From NCBI GenBank assembly GCA_965116475.1, contig OZ220691.1, forward strand, positions 1,696,001-1,760,000: DNA of 64,000 nt, in the 5' to 3' direction. Shown in pieces: positions 39,308 through 45,693 of this stretch (position 1 is the first letter of the stretch; every line of letters starts with the position of its first letter). This DNA comes from Gemmatimonadota bacterium. Lineage in GTDB: Bacteria > Gemmatimonadota > Gemmatimonadetes > Palauibacterales > Palauibacteraceae. The notes under the pieces were generated by a model. It had not been told where the DNA came from, did not search any database, and saw nothing but the letters and a program-made list of their open reading frames with translations. A program made the position numbers and the translations under genes.

Positions 39308-40561
39308 TCACATGTTGTCGATCATGGCCCGGCCGAACTCGCTGCACCTGAGGAGCGTCGCGCCCTCCATCAGACGCTCGAAATCATACGTCACGCGCTT
39401 CTCGCTTATGGTGGCGCTCAGGGAGGATACAATAAGGTCTGCGGCTTCGTTCCACCCCAGGTGCCGCAGCAGCATCTCCCCGGACAGGATGACGGATCCC
39501 GGGTTCACCTTGTCCTGTCCCGCATACTTCGGTGCGGTGCCGTGCGTCGCCTCGAAGATCGCGTGACCCGTCTCGTAGTTGATGTTCGCGCCGGGGGCGA
39601 TGCCGATCCCGCCCACCTGCGCGGCGAGCGCGTCCGAGATGTAGTCCCCGTTCAGATTCATCGTCGCGATCACATCGTACTCCGCGGGCCGCGTCAGGAT
39701 CTGCTGCAGAAACGCGTCGGCGATCACGTCCTTGACGACGATGCCATCGGAGGTCCTGCACCAGGGACCACCGCCGAACTCCTGTGCCCCGAACTCGTCC
39801 TTCGCGAGCTCGTAGCCCCAGTCGCGGAAACCGCCCTCGGTGAACTTCATGATGTTCCCCTTGTGGACCAGCGTGACGCTATCGCATCCGCGGTCGCGGG
39901 CGTACCGGATCGCAGCGCGGACGAGTCGCCGCGTCCCTTCCCGCGAGATCGGCTTCACGCCGAAGGAACTGGTCTCCGGGAAACGGATCGTCGACACGCC
40001 CATCTCGTCGCAGAGGAAGGCGCGCAGCCGGCGGGCCTCCTCGCTCCCGGCCTCCCACTCGATGCCCGCGTAGATGTCCTCGGTGTTCTCGCGGAAGATC
40101 GTCATGTCCACGAGGTCCGGCTGGCGAACCGGCGACGGGACGCCCTCGAACCAGCGCACCGGCCGGACGCACGCGAACAGGTCGAGCTTCTGGCGCAGCG
40201 CCACGTTGAGCGACCGGATCCCTCCGCCAACCGGCGTCGTGAGGGGCCCCTTGATCGCGACGCGGTGATGCCGGATGGCGCGGAGCGTGTCGGCGGGGAG
40301 CCAGTCCCCGGTGCGATCGAACGCCTTCTGGCCCGCGAGCACCTCGAACCACGCGATTCGCCGCTCGCCGCCGTAGGCCTTCTCGACGGCCGCTTCGAGA
40401 ACCGCGCTCGCCGCGCGCCAGATGTCGGGACCGATCCCGTCGCCTTCGATGAAGGGGATGATCGGACGGTCGGGCACGTCGAGGCGGTCGCCCGCCATGC
40501 GGATCGTGTCCCCGCCGGAGGGCGTGCGCAGGGTGTCGTATGCAGGAGCCGCGTCGGACAT
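39308..40561 (-). CDS. icd: NADP-dependent isocitrate dehydrogenase
   Basis: [60 protein letters not shown]. Confidence 0.97.
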
Positions 40562-40626
40562 GGGGATTTCTCGAATGGTTCGGGGATCTTCCTTCGCCCA
40601 CCGGGGATCGGCGGCGGCGGGAGGGG

Positions 40627-40693
40627 AGATTACGCCCCCCCTTCACCGCTGACAAACGCCACGGCGTGTATACATCAACATCGAATGTATACA
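40627..40693 (-). promoter_or_regulatory. icd sigma70-type promoter with two upstream TGTATACA palindromes
   Basis: Minus strand TTGTCA(40655-40650)-N17-TAATCT(40632-40627); TGTATACA at 40667-40674 and 40686-40693. Confidence 0.55.
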
Positions 40694-40714
40694 ATCCATG
40701 CACACCGTTACCGA

Positions 40715-41737
40715 TCAGTGGCTTATGGGCACGATCTGCAGGCCCAGCACGAAGGTCAGATCGGTTTCGAGTTGAGGACCATCGAGGTCGCGAACGAGGG
40801 GCAGGAGCACCTCGCCGGCGATCCGAAAGGCTTTGGCCCGGGGGATGTAGAGATTGAGGCTGAACCCTCCCTCGACCACGGTGCCTGCTCGGAGGTCGGT
40901 GCGGGCCGTGGGCACCATTTGGGGGTTTACGCTGGGCGCGGCGTCCCTTCCGTCGATGTTCCCGGCCCGGGTCGCGACCACCCGCACGCCCGCCGCGACG
41001 TTGCGCGCCAGCTGCCGCGCCCACCACGCGGTTCCCTGTATCCGGTCGCCGAGCGCCCAATCGCGGTCGTTCATGCCCATGCGCATCACGGCATTCCCCT
41101 GGGCTCCCCAGGACCAGTCGCCCGCCTGGCCCAGCCAGGTGAGGCCGGGACGCAGATCGAACGTGCCGGAGCCGATCTGCATGGGATAGGGGAGCTGGAC
41201 CTCCATCCCCTGACTGATGGGGAGGACACCCTGCTCCTCGATCGATCCGGTCGGCAGGCCGACCATCGCGTTCAGATGGAGCGACTGGTTCGCCCAGTCG
41301 GCCAGGCCGATCATGGCGCCCACCTTGACGTCGCCCACGCCGCCCGATTCGGTCGTGAACGACCCGCCGGCGCGCGTGATGTGGTCCATCGAACTGGACA
41401 CGAAGGGGAGCATCGCCATGAAGGTGATGCGATCGGAGGGCGCGAACATGGCCCCGAACATGTGCATCGTCATGGGCATGCGGGTCGGCGTGATCATGAA
41501 CCGCCCGCCCGGAGAAACGATGTCCGCGTCGGTGATCGGATCCGTGCCGACGCGGCTTCCCTCCATGGTCATCGTCATGTAGCGGTAGGAGAGCATCACC
41601 TCGCCCGCCTCGTGTCGGTGGTCGGCCATGACTCCGATGGGGGCGTGGCTGTCCGCGCGCGAGGCGTTCCACTGCGCGGCGACGGGTGCGGCAAGGGCCA
41701 GCAGCGCACATGCGCCGAGTATCGTGCATTTCTTCAA
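40715..41737 (-). CDS. Met/His-rich outer-membrane transporter/porin-like protein (likely metal uptake)
   Basis: TTG start with SD GAGGAG; signal peptide; RADSHAPIGVMADHRH, MPMTMHMFGAM, GDVK, PTGSI, LPYPMQIGSGTFD. Confidence 0.75.
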   Translation of the reverse strand: MKKCTILGACALLALAAPVAAQWNASRADSHAPIGVMADHRHEAGEVMLSYRYMTMTMEGSRVGTDPITDADIVSPGGRFMITPTRMPMTMHMFGAMFAPSDRITFMAMLPFVSSSMDHITRAGGSFTTESGGVGDVKVGAMIGLADWANQSLHLNAMVGLPTGSIEEQGVLPISQGMEVQLPYPMQIGSGTFDLRPGLTWLGQAGDWSWGAQGNAVMRMGMNDRDWALGDRIQGTAWWARQLARNVAAGVRVVATRAGNIDGRDAAPSVNPQMVPTARTDLRAGTVVEGGFSLNLYIPRAKAFRIAGEVLLPLVRDLDGPQLETDLTFVLGLQIVPISH

Positions 41738-41742
41738 GGTTC

Positions 41743-41896
41743 GACTCCTCGTTCGGTAAGGATGCGCCGCCCGTCGATGCCGAGCGCCAACGGGCGCCGG
41801 GATCGATTCGGTAACGGACACGAGCACGCGTATGGACCTTCGTGGCCGACGCGGTTCGCGCCCTGGACGACTTGTACGGGCTAGTGTCGAGGAGTC
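41743..41896 (-). promoter_or_regulatory. Anti-SD/SD long-range pairing between the uORF stop and the transporter RBS
   Basis: mRNA GACUCCUCG (41896-41888, overlapping the UGA) is the exact reverse complement of CGAGGAGUC (41751-41743, the SD). Confidence 0.65.
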
Positions 41897-42395
41897 AGGC
41901 GGGGGGTGGCTGGGCGTACGGCTTGAGGTAGGCGGCCGGGTCGGGAGCGGGCCCGGCGTCGCGTCGCCTTCCCTGCGGCGTCTGGCTCTCCAGGGTCGGC
42001 TGGGCGGCCGGCGCGGCGGACGCCACCTGCGCCGGACCGGAGCAGGTGAGGCAGATGCCGAGGCAGTCGCACGGTCCGTCCGAATGGGGATGCGACGGTG
42101 TCGCTGCGCCGGCGCCATCGGCGTGAGAGGACCCCTGGTGGCGGTCCGTATCGCCGCGGTCCGCATGGCCGTGGTCCGCGTGGCCGTGGTCCGCGTGCGT
42201 CCCGTGGAGAGCGACGGCCCGGGTCCCCGCCTCGTCGCCGTGCGTCGCCCGGTGCTTCGGACAGGGCTGAACGGCCGCGCCGGGCCCGATGCCGATGAGG
42301 AAGGCCGCGATGACGGCGTACAAATCCATGCGGACGCGTACGCGCCGCCCACGGGCGATGGCGATCCTCCGTCCCGGACGCTTTCGAGCCATCAT
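41895..42395 (-). CDS. DUF2946/CutF/CruR-like His-rich CxxC leader protein
   Basis: Basic N-terminus plus hydrophobic segment; HADHG repeats; CDCLGICLTC; C-terminal PYAQPPPA. ATG 42395 overlaps the PDZ stop (alternative start 42329). Confidence 0.7.
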   Translation of the reverse strand: MMARKRPGRRIAIARGRRVRVRMDLYAVIAAFLIGIGPGAAVQPCPKHRATHGDEAGTRAVALHGTHADHGHADHGHADRGDTDRHQGSSHADGAGAATPSHPHSDGPCDCLGICLTCSGPAQVASAAPAAQPTLESQTPQGRRRDAGPAPDPAAYLKPYAQPPPA

Positions 42396-43501
42396 CGCCG
42401 GGGCCAGACCCCGCTCATCTCTTCGCCTCTCCGAACCCACACCACTCCGAGACCCTCGCTCTCCTCCGACTCGAGCGCGACGACGAGGTCGTCCAGTTCG
42501 CGGATCGGACGCTCGCCCGCTCTCACGAGGAGATCTCCCGGCCGGAGCCCGAGGCGGTCGGTGACCGTCCCTCTCGCAACCCTGAGCACGAGCAGGCCGT
42601 CGAGGGCGGGGCGGTCGGAAAAGTCGCGCACGGGCTCGAACTCGGCCCCCGCGAACGTGCGGTGGAAGCGGACGGCGAGTTCGGTTTCCGTCAATGCCAG
42701 TTGAGCGATGCGAATCGCGCGGCGCCGAAACTCCATCGGCGAGAGGCGGGCCCGTACCGCTCCGACACGTTCGAGCGCGACGGCGAAGTTTCGATAGGCC
42801 GATTCCGACTCCCGCTGCAGGTCGCTCAGCACTTCCCGGCGGACCGCCGGCAACTCCGAGGCGGGGCGGTCCCGCACCGGCAGAATGTTGAGCCGGCCGT
42901 CGACGACGCGCACGGCGGAGGGCTCCACGGCCACGCCGATGTCCTCCGTATCGCGGACGGTGAGAGCGAATCCGGGGCGGTCGCCATCCGCCGGATCCGT
43001 CAGCCAGAGCACGAACATGTTCCGCTGCGGGTCCCCGGCGGTCGCCACCACCGTCCGGCGGCCCACCATCGGAAGGTCGTCCGCATCCGCCGGCCGGACG
43101 TCCGGAATCACTTCAAAGGCCTGGCGCAGTCCGTCTCGAGTCACTTCCAGCCGAACGGGAACGCTCGGGCGGATGGACGCGAGCCTGTCCGGCAGGTTCG
43201 CGAGCGTGAGTTCCACGCCGTCCATCGCCGCGAGTCGGTCGCCGGCGCGGAGCCCCGCCCGCTCCGCCGGCCCCCCTTCCTGCATCTCGCGAATCCGGAG
43301 AATGAGCGTGCAGTTCTTCCAGTCTTCCGAAGTCTCCCAGCCGCAGTTGTAGCGTTCGTCGATCCGCACCCCGATCCAGCCGGCGGATTCCGCCGTCCCG
43401 GCCTCCTGCGCGGCGCCGGCGAGGACGGCGAACGGCAGGGCGGCCAGAGCCAGGGCCGAGGCAAGCAGCGCGCGCGGAGACCGCGGGAGGGGCCGGGTCA
43501 C
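42392..43501 (-). CDS. Exported PDZ-domain protein (two PDZ-like domains)
   Basis: Signal peptide; GWIGV...GGPAERAGLRAGD; second GLLVLRV...LGLRPGDLL; no protease triad seen. Confidence 0.8.
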   Translation of the reverse strand: MTRPLPRSPRALLASALALAALPFAVLAGAAQEAGTAESAGWIGVRIDERYNCGWETSEDWKNCTLILRIREMQEGGPAERAGLRAGDRLAAMDGVELTLANLPDRLASIRPSVPVRLEVTRDGLRQAFEVIPDVRPADADDLPMVGRRTVVATAGDPQRNMFVLWLTDPADGDRPGFALTVRDTEDIGVAVEPSAVRVVDGRLNILPVRDRPASELPAVRREVLSDLQRESESAYRNFAVALERVGAVRARLSPMEFRRRAIRIAQLALTETELAVRFHRTFAGAEFEPVRDFSDRPALDGLLVLRVARGTVTDRLGLRPGDLLVRAGERPIRELDDLVVALESEESEGLGVVWVRRGEEMSGVWPRR

Positions 43502-44184
43502 CAGGTTCGCGTCCCGTTCGCGCGGCCGAGATCCTCCGCGAGCCGATCGCGCATCTCCACGAGTTCCAGCAGATAGGCGCTGGCGAAGGGATCGTCGGGA
43601 TAGGTCTCGAGGCGGTCGCGCAGGGCGCGGATCGACCCTTCGAGCCTCGCCAGCCTCTGCGCCATCTCCAGGGGATCTTCCCCCCTCAGCCCTTCCGAAG
43701 CGGGACCCGTCCCACCCTCTCCGACCTGTCGGAGCGGCGACCGCAGCGACTCCATCCGGCTGAGCCCGTCCACGAGGGCGCGACCGTCATCGGTGGAGAC
43801 GACGGCCGGGAGATCCGCGGCCGGCGGGTTCGCGGACCGGCCGCCCGTGAACTGCAGGCCGGCGATCACGCCGCCGGCGAACAACGTGAGGGCGGCGGCG
43901 GCCTGGAGCGGTCCCCGGACGAAGAGACGGCCGACGAGGCCTCCTCCGACCCGGCGGACGCCGGCACGCGTCGCGCCGGCATCGAGCGCGGCTTCGATAG
44001 CGGCCCACTGTCCCGCGGGCGCCTTCTCATCCGGAAGCGCGGACAGCGCCATGCGCATCCGGCTCAACCGCTCGAACTCCGCCTGGCACTCGCCGCATGT
44101 CGCGAGGTGGGCCCGGCAGTCCCCGTCCGCCCACGGCTCGTCGAGCAGTGCCGAGATTCGCTCGGCATCCATGTGGTTCGCCAT
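43498..44184 (-). CDS. Zinc-binding (ZAS) transmembrane anti-sigma factor
   Basis: HLATCGEC (Hx3Cx2C) motif and a single TM; directly downstream of the ECF sigma. Confidence 0.85.
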   Translation of the reverse strand: MANHMDAERISALLDEPWADGDCRAHLATCGECQAEFERLSRMRMALSALPDEKAPAGQWAAIEAALDAGATRAGVRRVGGGLVGRLFVRGPLQAAAALTLFAGGVIAGLQFTGGRSANPPAADLPAVVSTDDGRALVDGLSRMESLRSPLRQVGEGGTGPASEGLRGEDPLEMAQRLARLEGSIRALRDRLETYPDDPFASAYLLELVEMRDRLAEDLGRANGTRTW

Positions 44185-44198
44185 CTCTTCTATCCCTC

Positions 44199-44756
44199 TC
44201 AGAGGCCCGCTTCGCCACGCGCACCGCCGTTCCCGGAATCTTCCGGAGCGATGAGCTTCCGCATGCGCGCCCGCGCCTTGTGCAACTGCGATTTCGACGT
44301 GCCGGGCGCACACCCCAGCTCCTCGGCGATGTCGTTGTGCGTCCAGCCCTCCACGTCGTGCAGCACGAGGACTCTCCGGTACCCCGGCGGCAACTGGTCC
44401 AGCGCCTGGGTCAGGACCCGCCGCGTAACGATCACGTCGTCGTGCGCCCGCGCCACGCGCGGGAGCTCCGCGGCGGACTCCACCGGCCGCCGCTTCGACG
44501 ACCGGCGCAGCCGGTTGAGCGCCACGTTCGTCGCCAGCCGGTAGAGCCACGTGCCGAAGGCCGCATCGCCGCGAAAGAGGTGGAGCTTCTCGAACGCACG
44601 GATCCACGCTTCCTGGGAGAGGTCCTCCGCGAGGTGATCGTCGCCCACGAGGCGGCGAATCACGGTGTAGACGCGCCGCGCATGGAGTTCGTACAACTCT
44701 CCCATCGCGGATCGCTCTCCCGCCTTCGCGCAGGCGATCAGGTCGCGTTCTTCCAC
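44199..44756 (-). CDS. ECF RNA polymerase sigma factor
   Basis: AEDLSQEAWIRAF, FGTWLYRLATN, HDVEGWTHNDIAEELG..PGTSKSQLHKAR. Confidence 0.95.
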   Translation of the reverse strand: MEERDLIACAKAGERSAMGELYELHARRVYTVIRRLVGDDHLAEDLSQEAWIRAFEKLHLFRGDAAFGTWLYRLATNVALNRLRRSSKRRPVESAAELPRVARAHDDVIVTRRVLTQALDQLPPGYRRVLVLHDVEGWTHNDIAEELGCAPGTSKSQLHKARARMRKLIAPEDSGNGGARGEAGL

Positions 44757-44795
44757 GTCATCCCTCTGCAGGTCACCTTCCGGATCCACCGCTTT

Positions 44796-44821
44796 GATGC
44801 GCGGTTCAGGCGGCGGGTTGC
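44796..44821 (-). promoter_or_regulatory. Putative autoregulatory ECF promoter GCAACC-N16-CATC
   Basis: About 40 nt upstream of the sigma start; same geometry as the motifs at 11356-11439. Confidence 0.5.
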
Positions 44822-45693
44822 CCGCCCTCGGGTGCTCCGGCGTCCCCGGCCCGGGATTCGGTCGCCCGCAGTACGGCGCAGACCAGCAGCCCGAGCAGGA
44901 TGCCCGCGAGGGCGTCGGCCGCATAGTGGAAGCGACCGTACACCGTCCCCGCCGTCAACGCGAGTTCCGGGACGATGAGGAGCCAGAACCAGCGTCGATC
45001 CTCGCGTCCGGCGGCTACGACCGCGGCCAGGGAGGCGGCGATGTGGGAACTGGGGAAAGCCGTGCCCTTCGACGATCCGGCCTCCAGGATCCCGTGCACG
45101 ATCCCGAACAGCGTCCCCTCGCCGATCGCGCCGCCGATCTGCGCGAACTCGTAGCGGGGGCCCGCGACCGGGAAGAACATGAAGATGAGATAGGAGACGA
45201 AGAAGGCGGCGGCCACGGCGAGGGCGGTGCGCTGCAGGGCCTCGACCCCCCGCGTCGCGAACACGCCCAGGATGGCGGCGGGGATGACGGCGTAGTAGGC
45301 GAAGTAGCCCAGGTGCAACACCTCGGAGAAGGGGAGCCAGGGGAGCGACGCGCTGAGGCCGATGCTCGGCTGTCCGCCGAACATGGCGGCATCCCACGCC
45401 TGCACCGTGGCGTCGAAGTACCGCTGCGTGAGAAAGCGGTTGAGGACCGCGAGTTCCGCATAGAGGAGGGGCGTGAGGAGCACGGCGTACGCCGCCCTCG
45501 CGATCGCGGCGAGGCCGGCGCGGGGGTGCCAGGCCGCAAGTCGCGTGATCCCGAACACGGCGATCGCGTGGGCCGCGGCGATGCCCGCGCCGGGCAGGCC
45601 GCCGAACGCCAGCGAAACGAGGCCCGTGCAACCGAAGTAGCCGATGGCGACGCGATCGACGGGCAGGAGCCCTCCGCTGCGGCCCACGCTCAC
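44806..45693 (-). CDS. PAP2-superfamily membrane protein, Aur1/IPC-synthase-like
   Basis: Multiple TMs; FPVAGPRY, AFPSSHIA, VYGRFHYAAD catalytic motifs; GTGA overlap with the upstream gene. Confidence 0.8.
   Translation of the reverse strand: MSVGRSGGLLPVDRVAIGYFGCTGLVSLAFGGLPGAGIAAAHAIAVFGITRLAAWHPRAGLAAIARAAYAVLLTPLLYAELAVLNRFLTQRYFDATVQAWDAAMFGGQPSIGLSASLPWLPFSEVLHLGYFAYYAVIPAAILGVFATRGVEALQRTALAVAAAFFVSYLIFMFFPVAGPRYEFAQIGGAIGEGTLFGIVHGILEAGSSKGTAFPSSHIAASLAAVVAAGREDRRWFWLLIVPELALTAGTVYGRFHYAADALAGILLGLLVCAVLRATESRAGDAGAPEGGQPAA

Follow-up and report, generated by a model that had tools for sequence, protein, structure and literature searches.

In Rhodobacter capsulatus, the copper-dependent translation of cutO, the gene of a periplasmic multicopper oxidase, is controlled by CutF, a small protein that carries a signal peptide, the Cys motif CxxxC and, at its C-terminus, a PPP motif on which it stalls, together with a stem-loop over cutO's Shine-Dalgarno (SD) sequence that is proposed to be melted by the ribosome held at the PPP (PMC9973294; bioRxiv 10.1101/2025.02.05.636593). 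According to PMC9973294, CutF-like proteins occur widely, their Cys/His motifs and neighbours vary, and mixed ligand sets are found. In Bordetella pertussis, CruR (Bp2923), a protein of about 145 amino acids (aa) that combines an export signal with a Cys motif and, C-terminally, an xAPP-type motif, precedes bfrG, the gene of a TonB-dependent transporter, and acts via Rho-dependent termination, with copper relieving the stall; its two motifs are separated by 45 residues, a strictly conserved spacing, its homologues head operons, and leaders of this DUF2946 type carry an N-terminal export signal or an N-in/C-out transmembrane segment (PMC9426467). SecM of Escherichia coli is likewise an exported arrest peptide, sensing secretion pulling force, and the ribosome stalled on it opens a stem-loop that masks the ribosome-binding site (RBS) of secA (bioRxiv 10.1101/2025.02.05.636593). 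Here we describe a candidate switch of this kind, a leader open reading frame (ORF) followed by a transporter gene, on the minus strand of a stretch of 64,000 nucleotides (nt) from a Gemmatimonadota bacterium (contig OZ220691.1, positions 1,696,001 to 1,760,000; the whole stretch is called the window below).

On balance, if with reserve, we read this locus as a CutF-type translational switch, in which a ribosome dwelling at the PPP codons or at the stop would unmask the RBS of the transporter gene. With CutF-cutO it shares a small, putatively exported protein bearing a Cys metal motif and PPP near its C-terminus, and a predicted anti-SD/SD stem that would mask the target RBS until melted by a ribosome held at the PPP. 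Whereas CutF acts on a multicopper oxidase gene, the target here is a predicted COG4313-like outer-membrane barrel, and instead of CxxxC the window leader has C-x-C-x3-C(-x2-C) with an upstream CPxH and a His-rich repeat. Unlike the CutF stem, the window helix is long-range (136 nt) and closes a multi-hairpin spacer, its anti-SD overlaps the stop codon, and the leader, known here from sequence alone, is not the first gene of its cluster and lacks a Pfam DUF2946 match. CruR is similar in its size, its export signal, which is putative for the window leader, its Cys motif, C-terminal Pro motif, fixed motif spacing and long spacer before an outer-membrane transporter gene; it differs in its mode of action, in its TonB-dependent target, in the position of its homologues at the head of operons and in its motif, which is RAPP at three residues from the end as compared to QPPP-A in the window and NAPP, TAPP or NGPP in relatives (PMC9426467). 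SecM-secA offers the same principle of an exported arrest peptide opening an RBS-masking stem-loop, in an unrelated sequence without Cys/His motif (bioRxiv 10.1101/2025.02.05.636593). The elements of the window locus are the following.

41895..42395, minus strand: leader ORF (the upstream ORF), ATG at 42395, TGA at 41897-41895, 166 aa.
42270..42323, minus strand: hydrophobic segment L25-V42, LYAVIAAFLIGIGPGAAV, 18 residues after an Arg-rich N-terminus.
42252..42263, minus strand: CPKH motif C45-H48 (in QPCPKH), directly after the putative anchor.
42136..42195, minus strand: His-rich HADHG region, a 15-nt tandem repeat in 3 copies (repeat search).
42042..42071, minus strand: Cys cluster CDCLGICLTC (C109-C118), with the family-wide core C-x-C-x3-C.
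41901..41909, minus strand: PPP codons CCA CCC CCC (P163-P165), candidate ribosome-arrest motif, one residue (Ala) before the stop.
41888..41897, minus strand: anti-SD arm UGACUCCUCG, spanning the leader UGA stop.
41752..41887, minus strand: spacer interior, local hairpins enclosed by the anti-SD/SD helix in the minimum free energy (MFE) fold.
41742..41751, minus strand: SD arm CGAGGAGUCG, with the SD core GAGGAG at 41749-41744.
Between leader and transporter gene, minus strand: intergenic spacer of 157 nt, enclosing the local hairpins.
40715..41737, minus strand: transporter gene, 340 aa, TTG start at 41737-41735.

An earlier note on this DNA had pointed to HADHG repeats, CDCLGICLTC and a terminal AQPPPA in the leader and to a pairing of nine nucleotides, plus one G-U pair, between its stop codon and the transporter SD. 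All of the protein features were recovered at their minus-strand coordinates, THADHGHADHGHADRG being present in the translation along with the Cys cluster and the AQPPPA. The two segments GACTCCTCG (41896-41888) and CGAGGAGTC (41751-41743) are exact reverse complements with 136 nt between the arms, and the additional G-U pair lengthens the helix to 10 pairs. When the spacer was folded, as that note had proposed, the helix formed in MFE and ensemble folds, and in the MFE fold of 41910-41720 the 10 pairs close the entire spacer. The GAGGAG core ends 7 nt 5' of the TTG with which, in agreement with the note, the transporter gene starts. Ribosome footprints reach to about +15 nt, counted from the codon in the P site. 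If this codon is the last Pro codon of the leader, the anti-SD bases of the helix, at +6 to +15 nt from its first base, are inside the footprint, in line with the suggestion that a ribosome at PPP would cover the anti-SD; pausing at PP(P) or at the stop, a ribosome would occlude the arm or unwind it.

For comparison, we used 80 transporter-encoding loci obtained from one scan of GTDB species-representative genomes. Co-variation of the pairing, which the earlier note had proposed as a check, is present between lineages and specific to the stop region, while the clade close to the window is invariant: in 9 close relatives the SD arm is unchanged and the anti-SD and SD arms are identical save one mismatch. 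Because invariance says nothing by itself about structure, lineages were compared instead, and because GC-rich sequence pairs readily, which makes a single-locus control weak, cognate pairing was set against non-cognate pairing. Fifteen lineages were included (the window, standing for L001-L008, and 14 others), using the region from -18 to +15 around the stop and from -20 to -1 of the start codon. Cognate stop/SD duplexes have a mean energy of -14.5 kcal/mol compared to -11.0 kcal/mol for non-cognate ones (permutation p=3e-5), and for 10 of the 15 stop segments the cognate SD ranks among the top three. When start codons were set by an objective rule, by which three of the 15 changed, the cognate advantage at the stop remained (p=0.0015). 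Shifting the segment gave p=0.022 at an offset of -12 and p=0.003 at +12, and p-values of at least 0.099 at the 9 other offsets. The arms of the lineages diverge and still remain complementary, even outside the SD core (CUCCUCG/CGAGGAG, CCUCUUUCC/GGAAAGAGG, CUUCUCCU/AGGAGAAG and CCUCGGU/ACCGAGG). In whole-spacer folds, at least 6 pairs between stop region and SD region are found in the MFE structure of 13 of the 15 lineages, as compared to 29% of 450 dinucleotide shuffles, and in 10 of the 15 when 40 nt are added on each side, over spacers of 67 to 200 nt. The position with respect to the Pro codons recurs as well: in 15 of 16 loci, the bases of the anti-SD that pair are found from -6 to +23 nt relative to the last Pro codon, the exception being L025 with its anti-SD at +14 to +34. 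In lineages with xAPP(L/S) tails the anti-SD is built from the Pro, Leu and Ser codons themselves.

The interior of the spacer has diverged more freely, with a mean column identity of 60% over 11 sequences. As the MAFFT alignment of these 11 spacers (A3) misplaced the SD regions of L009 and L010, RNAalifold was limited to the 9 close relatives. It returned the 10-pair closing helix (anti-SD arm in alignment columns 19-28, SD arm in columns 171-180) enclosing two inner hairpin domains, in which 7 compensated pairs occur.

The leader belongs to a family of 265 representative proteins (exhaustive profile search, E<=1e-3), nearly all of about 125-180 aa and aligned end to end; 70 family representatives measure 90 to 223 aa, mostly 123-181 aa. 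Queried with the window leader, 12 of the 80 transporter loci have a homologue directly upstream on the same strand, and with a hidden Markov model (HMM) of the family this number rises to 22, all in Gemmatimonadota-type genomes. The flanking genes vary between lineages (a sigma factor and a PDZ gene recur in L009 and a sigma factor in L010, with unrelated neighbours elsewhere) and, because genes beyond the pair are not conserved, the leader-transporter two-gene module is, by genome comparison, the conserved unit. Nearly all family sequences (161/163) combine a CxC motif with a PP within the last 14 residues. Counted from the first Cys of CxC, the first Pro of PP follows at a distance of 53-56 residues in 144 of these 161, with a mode of 55 (76 sequences), across a linker without sequence conservation. 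NAPP (36), TAPP (29), NGPP (27) and AQPPP (12) are the commonest C-terminal motifs of the 161; the tail after PP mostly counts 1 to 3 residues, 3 being commonest (61/161), and PP lies 1 to 3 residues from the C-terminus in 110/161 members.

Within the window leader, P164 and P165 are invariant in the leader alignments and, in a 66-sequence alignment (A5), so are C45, C109 and C111, with H48 nearly invariant and C115 at least 90% conserved. The CXXC of the window leader is the CLTC inside CDCLGICLTC, and its final Cys varies across the family; a stretch of 44 residues separates the end of CLTC from the first Pro in 9 homologues, and one of 43 residues does so in L010. The segment L25-V42 is conserved in alignments A2 and A5 and, judged by inspection, is read as a putative signal anchor or signal peptide. 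HADHG copy number varies among close relatives, with more units in L001 and none in L005 or L007, and because of this difference we suggest that the His-rich tract grows and shrinks by slippage. The terminal Pro codons are biased: CCT accounts for 13 of 34 in the leader C-termini of the window, L009, L010, L014, L016-L018, L025, L027, L029, L042, L062, L075, L077 and L080, as against 10 of the 289 Pro codons that occur in the neighbouring transporter genes (Fisher p=1e-8). This enrichment would fit selection for a CCUCC-type arm, for slow decoding, or for both.

The earlier note had grouped the leader with the DUF2946-type leaders CruR and CutF. The architecture (anchor, Cys motif, PP(P), fixed spacing) agrees with this, but the domain models do not: the leader scores 8.9 bits (E=3.3) against Pfam DUF2946 (PF11162), under the gathering score of 23.7, a search of Pfam and NCBIfam at E<=0.1 gave no match, and hhalign of the 66-sequence profile against one true DUF2946 leader (L058) gave a probability of 0.2. 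For 4 of 13 aligned leader homologues DUF2946, with a best E of 2.3, is the sole family listed, and among 68 wider family representatives it reached sub-threshold scores of 21.6 and 17.9 bits in two and no match in 66. In the ESM Atlas, a cluster labelled 'DUF2946 domain-containing' is next to the leader at a score of 0.96, to be taken as a lead only. Judged from its sequence, the leader probably works like a CutF/CruR leader, as a very distant homologue or as a convergent form. Its family has a fixed Cys-Pro spacing, as DUF2946 proteins do, and it lacks their RAPP: in AQPPPA the prolines are not preceded by Arg-Ala and are followed by a single residue. Compared to the rule for CutF-like proteins in the main text of PMC9973294, it has a PP near its end and a same-strand gene after 157 nt, and with 166 aa from the first ATG it exceeds the length limit (144 aa from an internal ATG). 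A CutF-type stem, sequestering the SD within reach of a ribosome at the Pro motif, was found computationally.

This also bears on the claim of a new variant, which the note had based on the QPPP-type motif, the extra Cys/His ligands and the porin target without TonB. The motif has to be dropped as a novelty, CutF itself stalling on a C-terminal PPP (bioRxiv 10.1101/2025.02.05.636593), and so have the ligands, mixed sets being described for CutF-like clusters (PMC9973294); the barrel as a target class we did not find reported. The main texts of PMC9973294 and PMC9426467 make no mention of Gemmatimonadota, porin or COG4313, with phenol occurring once (PMC9426467) outside a transporter context, Table S1 of the CruR paper (PMC9426467) has no Gemmatimonadota entry, and nothing relevant was found in the literature linking CutF to Gemmatimonadota or PF13557-type (MetA-pathway) barrels to copper. 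No prior report was found of the Gemmatimonadota leader family, of a COG4313-like barrel as target or of an anti-SD located on the stop or Pro codons with co-variation support, File S1 of PMC9973294 and the supplements of the preprint being outside this comparison and possibly bearing on it. The kind of mechanism is thus already known, while the leader family and the target class are apparently unreported.

The Met/His-rich motifs of the transporter, also noticed before, are invariant in a 22-sequence alignment that reaches down to 50% identity (DxHAPxGVMxDHxH, MxMxM, MPMxMHM and MDH), and a word-limited sequence search returned at least 2,589 relatives. The transporter scores 16 bits (E=0.013) against Pfam PF13557 (Phenol_MetA_deg), under the 22-bit gathering cut-off, and PF13557 is precomputed on many homologues of 49-91% identity. 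A search of PDB sequences with the transporter profile gave one irrelevant match (E=0.46). Its AlphaFold2 model has a mean predicted local distance difference test score (pLDDT) of 79.8 and a predicted template modelling (TM) score (pTM) of 0.78, and the top Foldseek matches of this model are FapF (5o67_B, E=1.3e-13) and a COG4313 channel (4rl8_C, E=1.3e-12; TM scores TMq 0.61 and TMt 0.76), the latter in keeping with a Pput2725-like 12-stranded barrel fold. On this model, the transporter is a predicted outer-membrane beta-barrel of the 12-strand type. COG4313 channels (Pput2725, PDB 4rl8; PMC4493636) thus share its predicted fold, and many of its relatives carry PF13557, but the window protein stays below the Pfam cut-off and falls in a subfamily whose Met/His motifs are invariant. 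The substrates with which COG4313 channels have been associated are hydrophobic compounds rather than metals; for the window protein the Met/His motifs, and only these, suggest a metal substrate. In loci from cyanobacterial genomes (L020, L022-L024, L026, L032, L033, L039, L043, L046, L049, L052, L056, L063, L065, L067-L069, L073, L074 and L076) the transporter frame remains open far 5' of the conserved motif, which suggests homologues with a long low-complexity N-terminal extension; a simple Cys/PP screen upstream of these transporters found no leader ORF.

Beyond the 22 loci with a family leader, a simple motif screen found the transporter preceded by a small ORF whose product combines a Cys motif with a C-terminal PP in 13 of the 58 remaining loci. 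These ORFs (L058:2180-2569, L013:3541-3894, L030:3407-3826, and those of L038, L048, L061, L050, L054, L064, L066, L072, L079 and L012) look unrelated to the window leader, and their tails include RAPP, RGPP, RSPP, HPP and FRPP. With 36.1 bits, the ORF before the transporter of the alphaproteobacterial locus L058 encodes a true member of DUF2946, and in L030 and L013 the stop-proximal codons are complementary to the downstream initiation region. Because loci of other phyla also carry Cys/PP ORFs upstream, this comparison supports the barrel as a habitual target of such leaders. In a Kordia genome, an HMA-domain gene (L072:2793-3296) stands directly upstream of the Cys/PP leader and the transporter.

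In the window, which has a G+C content of 69% and whose nearest relatives are Candidatus Palauibacter genomes (phylum Gemmatimonadota), the pair is flanked by the following genes.

44924-44199, minus strand: extracytoplasmic function (ECF) sigma factor gene, first of the minus-strand cluster.
After the ECF sigma gene, within 42392-44924, minus strand: anti-sigma factor gene, with an H-x3-C-x2-C (zinc-binding anti-sigma-like) motif.
43501-42392, minus strand: PDZ-domain protein gene, directly upstream of the leader.
40561-39308, minus strand: isocitrate dehydrogenase gene, downstream of the transporter gene.

The leader ATG overlaps the TGA of the PDZ gene (ATGA at 42395-42392); the leader comes fourth in an ECF-sigma/anti-sigma/PDZ cluster and does not head an operon. 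Scans of 40400-45200 returned no promoter-like sites and a single terminator-like site, on the opposite strand, with no intrinsic terminator on the minus strand, and an Rfam search of 41500-42500 at E<=1 gave no match. An 8-nt palindrome, TGTATACA, occurs twice (40693-40686 and 40674-40667; window 40667-40693) in a markedly AT-rich stretch between the transporter stop and the isocitrate dehydrogenase gene, and this pair may be an operator site.

What we observe computationally is the anatomy, the predicted pairing, conserved and co-varying, the fixed spacing from Cys to PP and a codon bias; the mechanism that we propose on top of this borrows from CutF and CruR. The leader protein would be exported during synthesis, its anchor coming first, the Cys/His ligands next and then, about 45 residues further on, PPP, Ala and the stop. 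In the resting messenger RNA, 10 nt including the leader UGA would pair with the SD region of the transporter gene and close the 157-nt structured spacer, leaving the TTG-started channel gene poorly initiated. Each ribosome reaching the PPP or the stop would cover and unwind the anti-SD arm, and a longer dwell would keep the RBS open longer. By analogy, dwell time would depend on metal held by the already exported Cys/His motif of the nascent chain, copper being the likeliest metal given the Met/His-rich channel. It is from this analogy that we infer arrest at the PPP and metal sensing, as well as which metal is sensed and with what sign regulation acts. Regulation could have the sign of CutF, the stall being prolonged by metal and the target switched on, or that of CruR, with metal relieving the stall and the target switched off, and we lean slightly to the latter because a passive barrel suits uptake better than export.

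Taken over all loci, a wider reading is possible, which we put forward tentatively and do not hold to be probable: Met/His-rich COG4313-like barrels would be passive copper channels, gated in several phyla by exported arrest peptides. The leaders would then be of a Gemmatimonadota type unrecognised by Pfam, a true DUF2946 protein in the alphaproteobacterium, and further Cys-plus-PP proteins in Rhodothermales, Bacteroidota, Thermodesulfobacteriota and Anaerolineaceae. For many lineages of Gemmatimonadota, rare CCU Pro codons or the stop would form the anti-SD, the arrest site thus having nucleotides in common with the RNA switch, so that arrest and unmasking would be physically fused.

Other explanations account for part of these observations. 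The 9-nt pairing could be chance complementarity, one repeat of many in GC-rich DNA, between genes that are mere neighbours. Indeed, the window holds 199 perfect 9-nt inverted repeats with arms 20-200 nt apart, compared to 183.1±20.9 in 20 first-order Markov sequences, so the repeat alone is no more than the chance expectation, and the fold of the whole region is not unusually stable (z-score -1.36). The helix rises above chance because of its position, its conservation and its co-variation in other genomes: cognate pairing beats non-cognate pairing, with the signal localised around the stop codon, the closing helix is kept in 13/15 lineages despite their variable spacers, and the gene pair is conserved in 22/80 loci. 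Chance is thus highly improbable. An alternative of a different nature is plain translational coupling, without programmed arrest or metal sensing, in which the leader would be an inner-membrane-anchored periplasmic metal-binding partner (chaperone or relay) of the channel, the stop/SD helix would tie channel synthesis to translation of this partner and xAPP/PPP would be a structural or interaction motif. We consider this unlikely, without its being far-fetched, given that any terminating ribosome would open a helix placed over the stop, that the leader, at 166 aa, is long, has other genes before it in its operon here and is a member of a protein family of 265 representatives, and that its His-rich part varies like a metal-binding tail. 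A partner protein, however, would not need a Cys-to-PP distance of 53-56 residues across an unconserved linker, rare CCT codons at the PP site, or a PP 1 to 3 residues from the C-terminus; fixed spacing and terminal PP are hallmarks of the arrest peptides CruR and CutF (PMC9426467; PMC9973294).

Transcription attenuation of the CruR type, in which arrest at the PPP would protect the transcript and release would lead to Rho termination in the 157-nt spacer, with a secondary role for the helix, seems improbable to us, if clearly less so than chance. CruR, one of the two prototypes studied, works in this way, also with a long intergenic distance (PMC9426467), C exceeds G in the spacer (57 versus 47 of 157 nt), and the minus strand had no intrinsic terminator in the scanned region. 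Unlike an unstructured rut site, however, the spacer would, by prediction, be heavily folded, and its hairpins show compensatory changes; the co-variation specifically found between stop region and SD is not required by the Rho mechanism. Attenuation and the helix switch are, moreover, mutually compatible.

Several points weigh against the CutF-type switch that we favour on balance. No convincing cognate pairing is present in four of the 15 lineages (L062, L027, L025 and L016), the invariant helix of the close clade is uninformative, offering no co-variation within it, and its single mismatch, in L002, is uncompensated; in the single-locus sliding-window duplex control, 0 to 24% of the windows paired equally well or better. 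Pro, Leu and Ser codons are inherently anti-SD-like, so constraint on the protein may supply part of the signal. DUF2946 homology of the leader is not established, and a leader of 166 aa that is fourth in its cluster could be a working envelope protein and not a sensor alone. EF-P normally relieves stalls at PPP. A conserved metal-homeostasis gene, sought among 55 proteins from 13 leader loci and 55 from 14 other-phylum loci, was not found in these neighbourhoods, and the HMA-domain gene of L072 was the sole metal-related neighbour in two scans. The reading of the locus and of the phylum alike is computational, being made from nucleotide and protein sequences.

If the reading is correct, ribosome-arrest metal sensing of the CutF/CruR kind would extend to Gemmatimonadota and to a leader family missed by domain models. 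The stem-masking step, previously supported by work in one organism, would gain comparative support based on co-variation, and the overlap of arrest and stop codons with the anti-SD would provide a compact design rule for finding further switches.

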